Positions 272-7,603 of a stretch of DNA of 10,084 nucleotides are shown here, in pieces. The stretch's first letter is position 1. Each line of letters opens with the position of its first letter. The DNA lies in UHGV virus genome UHGV-0216281. One strand, written 5' to 3'. A program made the translations under genes and the position numbers. The notes under the pieces are model-generated. The model saw only the letters and a list, made by a program, of their open reading frames with translations. It made no database searches and was not told the DNA's origin. The DNA is from a virus.

Positions 272-1030
272 TTATCTCGTCACCTTTCTCAATTGTGTTT
301 CAGCATATGCTTCTTCCTGCCAGCACTTTGTTACCAGTTTATCAATGACGTCTGCATATCCTTTGTACCACTGATAATCAGTCAGGTCTGGAACCAGCTT
401 CTGGACATGACGTCGTGCCAGTGTAGTTGGTAAACGGCTAAACCGGTTTCCATTGCAACGCCCACAAATCTTATAAACAGGCGTGCCATGAAGCCGGGTC
501 CTTTTTTCATCCAGGACAATACCTTTACCCTTACACCCTCTGCACGCTGTGCTGACTTCTCCCTTACCATGACAATGCTGGCATAGTTCCTTCACCCACT
601 CTTCCTTGATAACAGATTCCCCGCTTCTGGAGTGTTTCACCACCTCGCGCAATACATTATGAAATCCAGTACCAGCACAATGCTCACAGCGAGCCTTACT
701 TGCCGCAGACCTGGAATAATCAGCAAAGGCAAAATTCACAAGGTAAGGAATGATCTGTAGCCGGGTTTCTTCACTCAATTTATTCAATGTCGGGTTATCC
801 AGTGCCATCGCGTAATTGAGCAGACCTTCAATCGCAAACTGAGGATCCTGAACACCAACTTTTGCCAGGAATAAGGCAAACCCAAGCGGTGCTTTCGACT
901 GCACCATCCCCTGCGCAGCCATCACATCCGTAATCGTTAAACCACCAGAGCCTGTCGCCGGTGCGTCATCGCTCAGTTTTGGAGATTTCGGGGAGTAATA
1001 TTTCGGTAAGGCTTCAAGGTTCATGCTCAT
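272..1030 (-). CDS. Late-gene antitermination protein Q-like (QuuQ-like), with four CxxC motifs of DnaJ-type zinc-finger pattern
   Basis: ORF of 252 aa. A GGAGA Shine-Dalgarno abuts the first ATG, so the second ATG at 1024 (250 aa) is the more likely start. Contains CEHCAGTG, CQHCHGKG, CRGCKGKG and CGRCNGNR (CxxCxGxG-like repeats). It is the last gene of the operon and sits directly upstream of a pR'-like promoter, pause element and terminator. The family assignment is from memory of Qin-type Q proteins and is not verified. Confidence 0.65.
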   Translation of the reverse strand: MSMNLEALPKYYSPKSPKLSDDAPATGSGGLTITDVMAAQGMVQSKAPLGFALFLAKVGVQDPQFAIEGLLNYAMALDNPTLNKLSEETRLQIIPYLVNFAFADYSRSAASKARCEHCAGTGFHNVLREVVKHSRSGESVIKEEWVKELCQHCHGKGEVSTACRGCKGKGIVLDEKRTRLHGTPVYKICGRCNGNRFSRLPTTLARRHVQKLVPDLTDYQWYKGYADVIDKLVTKCWQEEAYAETQLRKVTR

Positions 1031-2863: not shown

Positions 2864-3253
2864 TCAGGCGGCTGCACCCGCCGGTTTCTCATACTTACTG
2901 ATAGTGATCTCGACCTTCCCTTTCGGGATAACCGGTCCCCACTCCACCAGCATTCTTTTCACCTGTCTGTCGTCTTCCCACACACCCGCGTGGGTCAGGG
3001 CGTCAAACAGCGCCTTGTTATAGTTGTCCAGATCGCGGATCCGGTTATCCGGAGGAAACAACACGATCTCCACTGAAGCAGGTGCCGACGTTGGTTTTGG
3101 CAGACGACGTAACTGCTCAACTATTGCTGCGCACGCCGCGCTCTGAAATTTTCGCCCCGCCGCGCTTATCAGGCTCTTACCAGCAAATGCCCCTTTGTTG
3201 GGGTGTCGCCAGTAGGTGTTCACGCTGGGCGGGAAAGGCAGGATCAGCTTCAT
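2864..3253 (-). CDS. rusA: Holliday junction resolvase RusA (crossover junction endodeoxyribonuclease)
   Basis: 129 aa. PPDNRIRDLDNYNKALFDALTHAGVWEDDRQV corresponds to the RusA catalytic region (RRDLDN...FDALT...DD) as I recall it. The ATG overlaps the upstream stop in an ATGA junction. Confidence 0.88.
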   Translation of the reverse strand: MKLILPFPPSVNTYWRHPNKGAFAGKSLISAAGRKFQSAACAAIVEQLRRLPKPTSAPASVEIVLFPPDNRIRDLDNYNKALFDALTHAGVWEDDRQVKRMLVEWGPVIPKGKVEITISKYEKPAGAAA

Positions 3254-3576
3254 ACTTTCAGGCCCCTCTCATGTAACCAGTGGGCTGCACGCAGCCTGGC
3301 GTTTTCCTCACCGACAAGCAGTGAGCGGATAATCCCGACCGCCTCGCTGTCGTCGTCCTTCACCGCGGTATGAAGCGTGATCCCCCGGGCCACACCACGC
3401 TTTATCGTGATGACGCCTTTTTTCTCCAGTGCGCGAAGATGCTCCACCGCTGCATTCACCGAACGGTATCCCAGCATGGTTGCCACTTCCTGATTGGTTG
3501 GCGGGAAGCCACGCTCTTTCTGATAAGAAATCAGCATATCCAGCACCTGCTGCTGGCATTGAGTTAACGTCGTCAT
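3250..3576 (-). CDS. LexA N-terminal DNA-binding-domain protein lacking the S24 peptidase domain
   Basis: 108 aa. Residues 3-70 (LTQCQQQVLDMLISYQKERGFPPTNQEVATMLGYRSVNAAVEHLRALEKKGVITIKRGVARGITL) align closely with the E. coli LexA N-terminus ([65 protein letters not shown]). No Ser/Lys dyad region follows. ATGA overlaps occur on both sides. Confidence 0.8.
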   Translation of the reverse strand: MTTLTQCQQQVLDMLISYQKERGFPPTNQEVATMLGYRSVNAAVEHLRALEKKGVITIKRGVARGITLHTAVKDDDSEAVGIIRSLLVGEENARLRAAHWLHERGLKV

Positions 3577-4226
3577 GCCGCCATCTCCCTGACCAGCTTT
3601 TCCGCCTGCAGGCGAACCTGCGCCAGAAACGCCTCACCACATGCCTCAAGTTCATCGCGCCCGATGTAGCTGATTGCCGGTCCCTTCCAGGTCTTGTCGA
3701 AAACAGCAATAGCACCAGCGAAGAAAGCGCCTGTCGGCACCTGCTTCTCATCCTTCGGGATAAACCAGGCAGGCAGTTCAAAACCAATACGCCCGCGAAT
3801 AAAAGCAATATGATCTGCATCTTCCGGCCACCACACTTCGCTGGTGGCAGCTTTGATCAGGAAAACATAGCGCCCGCCCTTATCACGCATGGCACTGGCA
3901 TGCTTCATGATGTAACGCATGCCGGTGATGTATTGCCCCTCATGCTGACTGGCGCGGCTGTATGGGGGATTTCCAAAGGCAGCACCTTTAAGCTCCGCAA
4001 GGCGTTCTGACCAGTCATGCGCCAGCGCGTTGTCTTCCGCCGTGTAATACGCAGCACATTTGGCGTTATCACCGTCAGTGAACAGATCCAGAACAAACGG
4101 ACCAAACAGGGTGTTAATTCCCCAGAAAATGTTGTCCGGCGTGCGCCACTGATCGCCCACTTCCTTCAGTTCATGGGCTGGTTTGTTCCGCAGTTCCACC
4201 AGCTCCTGGCAATATTTATTACTCAT
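3573..4226 (-). CDS. Phage Dam-family DNA N6-adenine methyltransferase
   Basis: Contains the motif IV sequence GNPPYS (NPPY). The ORF track starts at a GTG at 4259 (228 aa), but the ATG at 4226 overlaps the upstream stop as TAATG, which suggests a coupled start giving a 217-aa product. It occupies the position of the yfdM-like methylase in CPS-53-type prophages. Confidence 0.85.
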   Translation of the reverse strand: MSNKYCQELVELRNKPAHELKEVGDQWRTPDNIFWGINTLFGPFVLDLFTDGDNAKCAAYYTAEDNALAHDWSERLAELKGAAFGNPPYSRASQHEGQYITGMRYIMKHASAMRDKGGRYVFLIKAATSEVWWPEDADHIAFIRGRIGFELPAWFIPKDEKQVPTGAFFAGAIAVFDKTWKGPAISYIGRDELEACGEAFLAQVRLQAEKLVREMAA

Positions 4227-4714
4227 TAAGCCCCCACGTAATTCCCTGACAGATACCACTCTTCACCTGATGCAGCCCGCTTACTGCTTTTCCGTAAACA
4301 CCGTTCACGACGCGCCAGAAAATTGTTTCGTTCTGGCTGGGAGTAGCTTTCACGGAATGCCGCCATCCACACCGTTGCAGCACGACGGTATAAGCCCCTG
4401 GACTCCAGTTCTTCCGCCTGGCGGGTCAGGCACAAAATCACCCGGGGATCGTTAGTGCCGACATAGAAATTGCGCACAGGTCTGGTTTCACGAACTGGTT
4501 GTGGTTCCGGCTCCTGCGCTCTCTCAGTCAGGCGTGGGAAATGTCTGCGTGTATCTCCTTCACAACGGTGAGCCACACGCCCACTCTGACGTAACTTGCT
4601 TGCTGACTGCAGAACGCGCTGCCGTGAGTAACCTGCAAAAGCATCCGCAATGTCTCCGGAAGTACAGCCCGGATGGGCTTCAATGAATTTCTGAACGTCA
4701 TTCAAAAGACTCAT
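4226..4714 (-). CDS. YfdN-like protein, possibly PerC-family (C-terminal EELESRGLYRRAATVWMAAF motif)
   Basis: The ORF track gives a GTG at 4720; the ATG at 4714 with a GGGGG RBS is the more likely start (162 aa). It is coupled to the replication gene stop. The PerC-like C-terminal motif is recalled from memory, so the family assignment is tentative. Confidence 0.55.
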   Translation of the reverse strand: MSLLNDVQKFIEAHPGCTSGDIADAFAGYSRQRVLQSASKLRQSGRVAHRCEGDTRRHFPRLTERAQEPEPQPVRETRPVRNFYVGTNDPRVILCLTRQAEELESRGLYRRAATVWMAAFRESYSQPERNNFLARRERCLRKSSKRAASGEEWYLSGNYVGA

Positions 4715-4716
4715 GA

Positions 4717-5658
4717 TCACCCCCTGAATCCTGCCGGGATCTGGCTGTAGTCCACGTTGTCGTAACTGGCTTTGAAGTACGGGTCTTCGCGTTTTTCGGT
4801 GTACGTGCTGACGGACGGCGATAAGCGCAGGGAAAGCTCATCCCATTTTTCCCGCAACTTCGACGGGCTGAGCACGTTACGGCACCAGAACGGATCGCGG
4901 CTGACGCGGCTGTACATCTCGCAGATTTGTTTGTGAGTACGACCATCCTGCACACACATCAGGCGAATTTCGTTTGCCCATGCTGTCCAGTTAGGTTCTT
5001 TGGGACGAACCACCTCGCCGTCACATTCGGCGGCCTGCTCGTACAGGGCGATGATTTTTTTCCAGAGCCACTGTGCGCAGGTCAAATCATCCTGCGTCCC
5101 CCACTGGCGCTTTTTAGGGCTGAATACAACCGCATCAGGATGGCGAGTTAAAAAATCCTGTTCATCCGTCTGCGTGTCCGGTTGCGAAGCGTCCGGACGA
5201 GAAGGTTTTTTATCTGACGGATCATGTTTTGATTTTACTGACGGATCCCCGCCAGATTCTGACGGGTGAAAACCCGCTTTTTTGCCAGATTTCGACGCAT
5301 CAAATTTTGACGGGTCAGATTTTGATGCGTCAGATTTTGACGGGTCAGAATCTGACAGTTGAGAAAATGCCGCTGCCTGAAGCTTCGCAACGTTAAGCTG
5401 ATAAACATTCGACGCATTGCGGTTACCCTGGCGACGCGCCTTACGCGTTAACCAGCCTTCTGCTTCCAGCCGTGCGATAGCCGTTCTGACGGTACTCATC
5501 CCCGCGCCAATCTGACGGGCAATAGTTTCAATTGATGGCCAGCACACACCTTCGTCATTACTGAAATCAGCCAGGCGGGCCATAATTGCCACGCTGGATA
5601 ATTTCATGCCTGACGCAGCGCAACCATCCCATACATAGCCGGTTAATTTAGTGCTCAT
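4717..5658 (-). CDS. Replication initiation protein, lambda O-like (N-terminal winged-helix/HTH, repeat linker, C-terminal domain)
   Basis: 313 aa. The N-terminus SSVAIMARLADFSNDEGVCWPSIETIARQIGAGMSTVRTAIARLEAEGWLTR is typical of phage and plasmid replication initiator HTH domains. The central low-complexity linker SDPSKSDASKSDPSKFDASKS is encoded by DNA tandem repeats. It sits in the O position after cro and cII. Confidence 0.8.
   Translation of the reverse strand: MSTKLTGYVWDGCAASGMKLSSVAIMARLADFSNDEGVCWPSIETIARQIGAGMSTVRTAIARLEAEGWLTRKARRQGNRNASNVYQLNVAKLQAAAFSQLSDSDPSKSDASKSDPSKFDASKSGKKAGFHPSESGGDPSVKSKHDPSDKKPSRPDASQPDTQTDEQDFLTRHPDAVVFSPKKRQWGTQDDLTCAQWLWKKIIALYEQAAECDGEVVRPKEPNWTAWANEIRLMCVQDGRTHKQICEMYSRVSRDPFWCRNVLSPSKLREKWDELSLRLSPSVSTYTEKREDPYFKASYDNVDYSQIPAGFRG
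5254..5358. repeat. Tandem 15-bp direct repeats (consensus AGATTTTGACGGGTC) inside the O-like gene; candidate origin iterons
   Basis: Units at 5254-5268, 5287-5301, 5302-5316, 5317-5331 and 5332-5346 (the last is a perfect match to the consensus), with a partial unit at 5347-5358 and a degenerate copy at 5231-5247. Four units are contiguous. This parallels the lambda ori iterons embedded in the O gene. Confidence 0.55.
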
Positions 5659-6006: not shown

Positions 6007-6560
6007 GCGTTAGTTTCTCCACAACCAGAAGCAATCGACGCCACGACGCCCGGAGCTGCACACTCGCGGGCGTCATTACTTTCTGAAACGCAAAAAATTT
6101 TGTAGACAAGTGCTGCATGCTCCTGCAGCTTCGAAATTGAGAGGTACAGCTCGTCGTTAATTGCTGTCTTCTCATGCGGTTCCACTACACCGTCTTCGAT
6201 TGCCGAACGAATCTGTTTTGAATAACTGCCGATCTGTTCAATGACTTCCAGTAAACGCTGGTTAATATCGGCATTGTCCACATCCTCGACGTCAGGAAGA
6301 GACACAAAGACGCCATTTGCAGACTGCGCCACAGCGTCAGCAATGAAGTGAGTGCCACCAGCACGTTGTAAAATCATTGCCCATCCCAGCGGGAAAATCT
6401 GATCGCCATCGGCACGAAGGCGGTTAAATAATGCGTTCTCTGTTACATCCAGCCACTCAGCAGCTTCAGCGTAACCCCCCGGCAACGCCGCGATAGTTTT
6501 TCTGACAGCTTTCACGTACCACTCAGGCTGTTTTTCCACTTTCCAGTGATGATTACCCAC
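6003..6560 (-). CDS. cII-position regulator (YdaT/CP76-like)
   Basis: 185 aa from a GTG start with a perfect AGGAGG RBS and 6-nt spacer. It overlaps the cro-like stop by 8 nt. It sits directly after cro, as ydaT follows ydaS in the Rac prophage. The family assignment rests on position and recollection. Confidence 0.55.
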
Positions 6561-6813
6561 GGCTTACCTCCTGTTCCTGTGGTTTAAACCCATTCTGGTT
6601 TTGGCTAGATTGAAAACGTGCCGGATAAAGAATCTGCATTTCGCTGATTTCACCCTTAAAAAAATTGGCCAGACGTTCTGCAAGATCGATAGATGGAATT
6701 TGTTCCAGTCTTTCAATACGACTCAGCGTCGCTGGATTGACCTGAACGCCAGCAGCAACATGCTGCAAAGTAAATCCGTGCGCCTTACGCACATTCCGTA
6801 ATGGTGATTGCAT
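6553..6813 (-). CDS. cro: Cro-like HTH regulator (YdaS-like)
   Basis: 86 aa, transcribed divergently from the repressor gene. HTH segment GFTLQHVAAGVQVNPATLSRIERL. GGAGG RBS with a short 4-nt spacer. Confidence 0.75.
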   Translation of the reverse strand: MQSPLRNVRKAHGFTLQHVAAGVQVNPATLSRIERLEQIPSIDLAERLANFFKGEISEMQILYPARFQSSQNQNGFKPQEQEVSRG

Positions 6814-6825
6814 ATGACCTCCACA

Positions 6826-6906
6826 TATTGCGTGATAAGCATATTATTTCACGCAAATATTTTGCGCAAGTTGATTTGCTTAACGCGCAATAAAGAAATG
6901 TAATAA
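6826..6906. promoter_or_regulatory. Divergent cI/cro control region: operator-like repeats and candidate pR and pRM promoters
   Basis: 15-bp motif TTGC(A/T)TA-N3-CGCAA at 6876-6890 (plus) and 6828-6842 (minus orientation, ATGCTTATCACGCAA). Extra half-sites TCACGCAA (6849-6856) and palindromic TTGCGCAA (6862-6869) give two TTGCG-N19-CGCAA symmetric units. Candidate pR on the minus strand: -35 TTGCGC (6869..6864), -10 TAATAT (6846..6841). Candidate pRM on the plus strand: -35 TTGCTT (6876-6881), -10 TGTAAT (6899-6904), giving a near-leaderless cI mRNA. Confidence 0.5.
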
Positions 6907-6910
6907 ACGC

Positions 6911-7603
6911 ATGAACATAGGAAACCGAGTCAGACAACTTCGCCAGGCGAAGAACATGAAAATCGCCGATCTCGCTGAAGCAATAGGAGTGGATGCGGCG
7001 AATATCTCACGCCTGGAAACAGGTAAGCAGAAACAATTCACTGAACAAGCCCTGAGTAATATTGCCAGGAGCTTAGGTGTTGATATTGCTGATCTCTTTA
7101 CCTCAGACTTCAAAAGTAATACTGTATGTAAAAACAGTATTAGTGAGGATGTTGCGCAGGTGAAGGATGTATTCCGTATTGAAATGCTGGATGTCAGTGC
7201 CAGTGCGGGAAATGGCCTTATCCAGGGCGGTGATGTCATTGATGTGATTCATGCCATTGAATACAGAACTGATAATGCTGTATCGATGTTTGGCGGACGG
7301 CCAGCCAATCACATTAAAGTTATCAACGTTCGTGGGGACAGTATGTGTCCAACCATTGAGCCAGGAGATCTCATCTTCGTTGATGTCAGTATCAATCAGT
7401 TTGATGGAGATGGTATCTATGTATTTGGTTTTGATGATAAAATTTATGTCAAACGACTGCAAATGATACCTGACAAACTACTGGTGATTTCTGATAACCA
7501 GATTTACCGTGAATGGGGAATTACCAGCGAAAATGAACACCGGTTTATGGTCTTTGGAAAGGTCTTAATCAGCCAGTCACAAACCCTTAAGCGACACAAT
7601 TAA
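6911..7603 (+). CDS. cI: cI-type prophage repressor (N-terminal HTH, C-terminal S24 LexA-like autopeptidase)
   Basis: 230 aa. The N-terminal HTH is IADLAEAIGVDAANISRLETGK. The C-terminus carries the S24 catalytic Ser motif GDSMCPT and the Lys in YVKRL. No Shine-Dalgarno precedes the ATG, consistent with a leaderless message. Confidence 0.9.
   Translation: MNIGNRVRQLRQAKNMKIADLAEAIGVDAANISRLETGKQKQFTEQALSNIARSLGVDIADLFTSDFKSNTVCKNSISEDVAQVKDVFRIEMLDVSASAGNGLIQGGDVIDVIHAIEYRTDNAVSMFGGRPANHIKVINVRGDSMCPTIEPGDLIFVDVSINQFDGDGIYVFGFDDKIYVKRLQMIPDKLLVISDNQIYREWGITSENEHRFMVFGKVLISQSQTLKRHN

Follow-up and report, generated by a model that had tools for sequence, protein, structure and literature searches.

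The truncated LexA homologue gp6 of the Betatectivirus GIL01 is encoded in the early operon of the phage and activates the late promoter P3; it is 44% identical to the N-terminal domain (NTD) of the LexA of its host, and it binds GACACA-N2-TGTGAC, not the LexA box of that host (PMC6182141). In Escherichia coli LexA, helix 3 contacts bases through residues S39, N41, A42, E44 and E45 (PMC3091678). Contacts between two NTDs on the DNA stabilise LexA dimers, and non-cleavable LexA keeps the SOS genes off after damage (PMC3159453). Here we describe LexN, a phage protein of related design, which is encoded in a stretch of 10,084 nucleotides of the UHGV virus genome UHGV-0216281 (this whole stretch of analysed DNA is referred to as the window). 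The LexN open reading frame (ORF) runs from 3250..3576 on the minus strand and specifies a LexA-type winged-helix DNA-binding domain followed by a C-terminal helical hairpin, without an S24 domain. We tentatively propose, as a serious possibility that falls short of being probable, that LexN is a RecA-insensitive substitute for LexA which binds SOS boxes after induction.

Domain structure and conservation of LexN

The product of the ORF is a protein of 108 amino acids (aa) with an ATG start (MTTLTQCQQQVLDMLISYQKERGFPPTNQEVATMLGYRSVNAAVEHLRALEKKGVITIKRGVARGITLHTAVKDDDSEAVGIIRSLLVGEENARLRAAHWLHERGLKV). A Shine-Dalgarno (SD) sequence, GGGAGA, is located 7 nt 5' of this ATG (3584..3589, minus strand), within the 3' end of the dam gene. 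The Pfam profile PF01726 (LexA_DNA_bind) matched residues 1–65 over its entire length (profile positions 1–65 of 65), with an E-value of 2.9e-19 and a score of 69 bits, passing the gathering cut-off of 23.7 bits. A phmmer search of the PDB aligned residues 2–69 with the E. coli LexA NTD in 1lea (E = 7e-16); taken together, the NTD structures matched residues 2–70 with E-values of ~1e-15. When a profile of the LexN family was compared with one of 12 bona fide LexA proteins using hhalign, the probability was 99.9% and the identity 54%, with the alignment ending at about residue 76. The AlphaFold model of LexN, with a predicted local distance difference test score (pLDDT) of 83.7, was superposed by Foldseek on 3jso_B from the LexA-DNA complex with a root mean square deviation of 0.9 Å over 68 columns and 50% identity. 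Based on Pfam, the AlphaFold model, the 3jso superposition and the ratio of nonsynonymous to synonymous polymorphism (pN/pS, given below), the winged helix-turn-helix (HTH) was assigned to residues 1–69 (3370..3576, minus strand); in the model it consists of helices at residues 6–22, 28–35 and 40–52 and strands at residues 56–58 and 66–68. Profile and structure comparisons therefore both bear out the LexA DNA-binding domain that had been named in a preliminary description of this DNA.

The same description held that the autoprotease domain is absent, and this proved correct as well. No match to the S24 profile PF00717 was found in LexN with Pfam, and the protein stops at residue 108. LexN remains below the cut-off of the NCBIfam lexA equivalog model TIGR00498 (67.8 versus 110.95 bits), of which positions 1–91 of 203 were matched. 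In the hhalign comparison with LexA, no Ala84-Gly85 cleavage region was present in an alignable context. A V/A-G-E tripeptide does occur at residues 88–90 of LexN, in a region that is helical in the AlphaFold model and unaligned to LexA. The idea that the tail is a relic of the LexA cleavage site (LLAGEE resembling VAAGEP) was rejected, because the alignment ends at about residue 76 and the tail is modelled as a helix with a pLDDT of ~90.

LexN matched PHROG 362 over its full length (residues 1–108, profile positions 1–106 of 106, E = 5.4e-59). An exhaustive HMMER search yielded full-length relatives of 106–135 aa with 38–51% identity; distant homologues were sampled opportunistically. Among 80 distinct alleles of 327 nt, pN/pS was 0.09 for residues 1–69 and 0.38 for residues 70–108, values that reflect strong purifying selection on the DNA-binding domain and weaker selection on the tail. 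Because of the constant length of homologues (106–108 aa, down to 38% identity), their degree of conservation and the pN/pS ratios, LexN can be considered neither a chance ORF nor a pseudogene. Judged from these alignments, it is a member of a distinct, conserved family built of two modules, and not a broken lexA or a truncation artefact.

The recognition helix was placed at residues 40–52 (3421..3459, minus strand) by the phmmer alignment, the contact residues and the conservation within the family. The sequence SVNAAVEHL at residues 39–47 is identical to the SPNAAEEHL of E. coli LexA helix 3 at 7 of the 9 positions, and four of the five contact residues of LexA are present in LexN (S39, N41, A42 and E45), with V replacing E44. 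Close relatives of LexN conserve these four residues, and across the whole family S39 is invariant and N41 near-invariant. By its sequence, the recognition helix is of the gammaproteobacterial (CTGT) type. Since four of the five contacts are kept and E44 is replaced, binding of LexN to CTGT-type half-sites is likely but not certain.

The DNA-binding domain is followed by an acidic linker (residues 71–75), in which the confidence of the AlphaFold model is low, and by the hairpin (residues 75–103, with helices at 75–88 and 93–103; 3268..3354, minus strand), which is supported by a pLDDT of ~90 and by conservation in the family. Distant relatives share the tail consensus EAxxxIRALLAGEENARxRAxxWLxxRG, and A97 and L101 are nearly invariant. 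The tail as a whole comprises about 35 aa, ends in GLKV and is not homologous to LexA. We infer that the hairpin may serve as a dimerisation module.

A tandem double LexA_DNA_bind domain with no obvious S24 domain was seen in many metagenomic proteins of ~140–350 aa (for example P0130, P0132, P0148, P0151, P0152, P0154, P0158, P0161, P0162 and P0166). From their domain arrangement these proteins may be single-chain pseudo-dimers, and as such another protease-free design of the LexA type.

SOS boxes in cI and elsewhere

Candidate SOS boxes were scored with a weight matrix made from an uncurated set of 21 E. coli SOS boxes. Only one site in the window reached 10 bits: a near-consensus box, TACTGTATGTAAAAACAGTA, at 7120..7139. 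Its score of 25.8 bits (~4e-6 such sites expected by chance per 10 kb) ranks with the three highest scores of the boxes used to train the matrix, and we take it to be one base off the umuDC box; among phages of this type the cI box scores 25.8–27 bits. The box is located inside the cI repressor gene (6911..7603, plus strand), in the linker between the regions for the HTH and the S24 autoprotease domain. The presence of an S24 domain in this neighbouring repressor, which was also part of the preliminary description, was confirmed by its match to PF00717 (E = 6.5e-19).

A diverged cI allele was found in the IMG/VR locus L160. It is 68% identical in DNA and 72% identical in protein to the cI of the window, and the box is conserved at 19 of its 20 positions (L160 2812–2831); the 15-nt flanks of the box match at 5/15 and 3/15 positions, with indels. 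Because 19 of the 20 positions are kept in a diverged allele whose flanks are unalignable, the box inside cI is, on this comparison, a selected DNA element. Of the 5426 complete E. coli genomes, 1040 (19%) carry the boxed allele of cI. We regard the box as a candidate cis target for host LexA and for LexN; production of an SOS-induced C-terminal fragment of CI, or a LexA roadblock, are possibilities at this site. A strict scan detected no promoter overlapping the box. A weak promoter-like sequence, TTTACC-17-TACTGT, lies at 7097–7125 (plus strand), with the same spacing in L160, and both in the window and in L160 the box is followed by an in-frame GTG with a purine-rich SD-like run upstream of it.

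In relatives a second box, TACTGTAAAAATAAACAGTG (22.3 bits), occupies codons 3–9 of a gene for a DNA methylase, which follows Q and tR' and precedes the lysis genes. It was located in SfV (34170–34189), in mEp460 (41021–41040) and in the locus L001 (325–344), and its position corresponds to ~1.2 kb beyond position 1 of the window. The exact 28-mer comprising the ATG of the methylase gene and the box occurs in at least 120 IMG/VR contigs. A LexA-controlled methylase and a roadblock to the late transcript are both possibilities for this box.

When CTGT-Nx-ACAG was counted for x = 0–20 in the window and in the genomes of SfV and mEp460, N8 was the one spacing enriched, and an altered half-site spacing for LexN was rejected on this ground. 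The longer form ACTGT-N8-ACAGT was seen four times in mEp460, against 0.04 expected. The window contains no notable palindromes besides the cI/Cro operators (TTGCG...CGCAA, 6826–6892), which are unlike LexA sites.

The association of LexN with the boxes was determined from both sides. In a set of 80 LexN-centred IMG/VR loci, 27 had the cI box, at 2.9–5.3 kb upstream of LexN. At least six distinct distances between LexN and the box were seen, and the intervening replication module has therefore been exchanged. The methylase box was found in 19 of the 80 loci, and three more have variant boxes downstream. When loci with a boxed cI and enough flanking DNA were considered, 20 carried LexN, one (L160) a homologue and one (L189) neither. 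The homologue in L160 is 51% identical and lies between Dam and RusA, with RusA starting ~680 nt downstream. Of the 39 loci in which at least 6.3 kb of DNA precedes the methylase box, 34 contained LexN, including L297, in which the homologue is 43% identical. L160 and L297, two diverged lineages, each keep a box alongside their LexN homologue.

Two further sites were noted. In mEp460, tandem SOS boxes (23255–23274 and 23283–23302, with 23.4 and 21.3 bits, respectively) precede a prophage dinI-like gene beside the integrase gene, a further SOS-wired accessory gene in this type of phage. In L189, a box of 21.7 bits, CACTGTTCATAAATACAGTA (2063–2082), is situated between RusA and a 67%-identical KilA-N gene, suggesting that this KilA-N or antirepressor-like gene may be under LexA control.

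Operon context and distribution of LexN

The window comprises the immunity and early-right region of a prophage of the SfV/mEp460/cdtI/Stx2c type (Stx, Shiga toxin) and is 96–97% identical to several sequenced phages over 75–86% of its length. LexN is part of the rightward pR operon, of which cro (6553..6813, minus strand) is the first gene. The other genes of this strand encode a cII-like protein (CP76; 6560–6003), a replication protein (5658–4717), a PerC-like protein (4720–4226; PF06069, E = 1.7e-8), the Dam N6-adenine methyltransferase (3573..4259, as an ORF from the GTG at 4259), the RusA Holliday-junction resolvase (2864..3253), a KilA-N protein (2844–2035), a DUF968/HNH protein (2033–1038) and the antiterminator Q (272..1030), with which the delayed-early operon closes; a terminator is located at 166–145 on the same strand. 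Regulators of the PerC/Pch type control virulence loci in enteropathogenic and enterohaemorrhagic E. coli. Within the replication gene (4717–5658, minus strand), a 15-bp unit, CAGATTTTGACGGGT, is repeated 4.3 times in tandem at 5286–5349. These repeats are probably origin iterons that lie in the initiator gene, like those of lambda O.

From the PerC-like gene to rusA, the stop and start codons of consecutive genes overlap. The PerC-like/dam overlap is TAATG, and ATGA overlaps join the stop of dam to the start of LexN (3573–3576) and the stop of LexN to the start of rusA (3250–3253), so that the coupled block of Dam, LexN and RusA reported previously is indeed found in the window. The true start of dam is probably the ATG at 4226, which SfV also uses, giving a protein of 217 aa; both the alignment with SfV and the TAATG shared with the preceding ORF point to this start. 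A simple scan for a dam-LexN promoter revealed no sigma-70-like match 5' of LexN. The dam promoter annotated in SfV (TTGCGC-N15-TACGGA) was not accepted, being a poor match whose -35 element has decayed even more in the window. Because the scan revealed no promoter of its own and LexN lies deep in the pR operon, it is expected to be a delayed-early product, made only after the repression by CI has been lifted.

In at least 11 related loci dam is absent and LexN directly follows the PerC-like ORF (L287, L227, L245, L232, L286, L299, L220, L265, L259, L217 and L309). The coupling of Dam and LexN is one of several module arrangements, and RusA is the neighbour that LexN keeps most constantly across lineages: the 4-nt overlap of LexN and RusA was present in most loci examined, including that of mEp390, which has a LexN homologue with 47% identity. 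L243 carries LexN without RusA, and L189 carries RusA without LexN. A search with PADLOC for a link to defence systems gave generic winged-helix noise only.

Using tblastn, the LexN gene was found in 61 deposited phage genomes, among which are SfV (orf42), SfII, SfIV, mEp460, cdtI, 1720a-02 and Stx2a and Stx2c phages. It is also present in at least 587 IMG/VR contigs and in 2233 of the 5426 complete E. coli genomes (~41%), at 95–99% nucleotide identity and in up to four copies. The annotated members of the family are 94–99% identical in protein sequence and occupy the same slot between dam and rusA. They were deposited as 'LexA DNA binding domain protein' (mEp460_046), 'LexA-like protein' or 'transcriptional repressor', the last being also the label of PHROG 362, and in E. 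coli genomes the PGAP name is 'LexA family transcriptional regulator'. In a comparative paper on Stx phages LexN is present solely as a table entry, pham 237 (PMC8136144). A full-text literature search, with subscription journals outside its coverage, retrieved no functional work on the enterobacterial LexN family. The family is already annotated in databases, and its kind has a characterised precedent in gp6.

Proposed role of LexN and comparison with LexA and gp6

That LexN could occupy SOS boxes without being cleavable, as the preliminary description suggested, is plausible in the light of its recognition helix. As a substitute for LexA, LexN would form a dimer, through the hairpin and/or NTD-NTD contacts on the DNA, on canonical SOS boxes (CTGT-N8-ACAG). 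From its position in the operon, it would accumulate after induction, when host LexA is depleted. Not being inactivated by RecA*, it would then repress anew the host SOS genes and the LexA-controlled promoters of co-resident elements or competitors. Within the phage it would act on the cI box here and, in relatives, on the late-region methylase box. The earlier idea that LexN retunes the SOS response upstream of the cleavage of cI meets a caveat of timing, as LexN should be made only after CI has failed.

An elaboration of this proposal, which we consider unlikely, is a relay from LexA to LexN. LexA would occupy the cI box and, in relatives, the methylase box in the lysogen; after its removal upon DNA damage and the firing of pR, the uncleavable LexN would re-occupy these and the host boxes. 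LexN would block renewed transcription of cI, or an SOS-controlled internal promoter of cI, and in this way lock the lytic commitment; it would also shut off the host SOS regulon as well as competitors (antirepressor-type prophages and colicins).

Several points weigh against an action of LexN on SOS boxes. Residue E44, which is at least 90% conserved in 12 true LexA proteins, is V in LexN and variable across the LexN family, and LexN has the further substitutions R28 to N and R7 to C. In 35 of the 80 LexN loci no site of at least 15 bits is present in the available DNA, some of these loci being short, and no SOS box was found in the 14 kb around the 47%-identical homologue of mEp390. In L189 (2155–3188; an IMGVR_UViG_2778261...-type contig), the boxed cI is kept, Dam abuts RusA and LexN is cleanly missing. 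The association of LexN with the boxes is frequent, not obligatory, and it is inseparable from the linkage of neighbouring modules, because RusA, DUF968 and other modules co-occur with the boxes as often. With neighbouring modules doing equally well, and with L189 and mEp390 as counter-examples, a functional coupling was not accepted on the basis of co-occurrence. Dimerisation through the tail is itself something that we infer, and, as gp6 shows, a truncated phage LexA can shift its site and activate transcription.

This last point leads to the alternative that LexN is of the gp6 type, with a drifted specificity, and acts at a phage-specific site as a timing device, activating or repressing a promoter of the phage, with no action on the host SOS regulon. 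We regard this as rather unlikely, though well worth considering. The gp6 precedent speaks for it, as do the changes E44V, R28N and R7C, the variability of position 44 across the family and the many LexN loci, and mEp390, without a nearby SOS box. However, helix 3 of LexN is far nearer to that of E. coli LexA than helix 3 of gp6 is, no alternative CTGT spacing is enriched, the sole palindromes standing out in the window are the cI/Cro operators, and the phage has Q for late activation.

A role as competitor or dominant-negative form of LexA, in which LexN would occupy half-sites or pair with a LexA subunit on the DNA, the repression by LexA dimers would weaken and SOS would be boosted or prolonged, appears improbable. 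LexN is without the dimer interface of the LexA C-terminal domain (CTD), an isolated NTD would bind weakly, and the NTD-NTD interface on DNA makes mixed occupancy conceivable. Yet the conserved C-terminal hairpin fits poorly with a pure competitor, LexN should be expressed after CI inactivation, when LexA is already depleted, and overproduced LexA NTD fragments cause weak repression rather than derepression. A heterodimer with host LexA had been suggested for LexN; formed via the normal interface it is unsupported, because this interface lies in the CTD, which LexN lacks; pairing via two NTDs on the DNA is conceivable by analogy with LexA.

It also seems quite doubtful that LexN is no transcription factor at all and serves as a DNA-binding accessory of recombination or replication, for example by targeting or modulating RusA. 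Such a role would agree with the adjacency of LexN and RusA, with a 4-nt overlap in most loci examined, and with weak matches of LexN to replication winged helices (the O-like phrog_678, E = 0.009; DnaD_N, E = 0.16). These matches, however, reflect generic winged-helix similarity, and the adjacency is expected from module linkage; moreover, L243 has LexN without RusA and L189 RusA without LexN, and strong purifying selection preserves the LexA-specific recognition helix. That LexN is a decaying, functionless remnant of a captured lexA is hardly credible, since this reading, in spite of the many frameshifted or truncated database copies (e.g. P0024 and P0030), is effectively refuted by the NTD pN/pS of 0.09 and the conserved length of the homologues, and is at odds with the occurrence in 2233 of 5426 E. 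coli genomes and at least 587 IMG/VR contigs and with the translational coupling to the neighbouring genes.

If LexN does bind SOS boxes, a second, RecA-proof repressor of the LexA type is present, in one to four copies, in ~41% of the E. coli strains sequenced. The strains that carry LexN include extraintestinal pathogenic E. coli and hosts of Shigella-converting and Stx2-converting prophages. As an SOS-box binder, LexN could curtail the SOS response or alter its course while a prophage is being induced, could affect mutagenesis, persistence and the induction of Shiga-toxin phages under antibiotics, and could mediate competition among co-resident SOS-controlled elements. The conserved box in cI suggests an input of LexA or LexN directly into a lambdoid immunity gene, an input that the textbook lambda switch is not known to include. 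Together, the abundance of LexN and the conserved cI box suggest a LexA-LexN-CI circuit, and if the relay were true, a phage-built, RecA-proof second SOS layer would be present in ~20–40% of E. coli strains.

With E. coli LexA (1lea, 1jhh, 3jso; TIGR00498), LexN shares the winged helix and the SxNAAxEHL signature. Unlike LexA, it is without the Ser/Lys protease/dimerisation domain, a helical hairpin taking the place of the CTD, and it is phage-encoded, in a lytic operon. As a module beyond inactivation by RecA*, it can be likened to the LexA fragment 1–84 and to LexA(Ind-) G85D. The natural cleavage fragment of LexA is a weak binder and is rapidly degraded by ClpXP via its new C-terminus; in contrast, LexN has a conserved tail of its own and is a selected gene product.

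LexN and gp6 have in common that they are phage-encoded LexA DNA-binding domains without a protease and that they are expressed from an early operon. No alignment of the two was obtained with BLASTP, and hhalign aligned them over the winged helix only (63 columns, 32% identity, probability 96.8%). LexN is much closer to gammaproteobacterial LexA (54%), gp6 stemming from a different LexA lineage. The gp6 protein, of 66 aa, is without the C-terminal hairpin, and its helix 3 reads SHKTAHRYL, whereas the helix of LexN is of the host type. From this comparison, LexN and gp6 are best read as independent captures and truncations of LexA, the one in phages of Gram-negative and the other in phages of Gram-positive bacteria.

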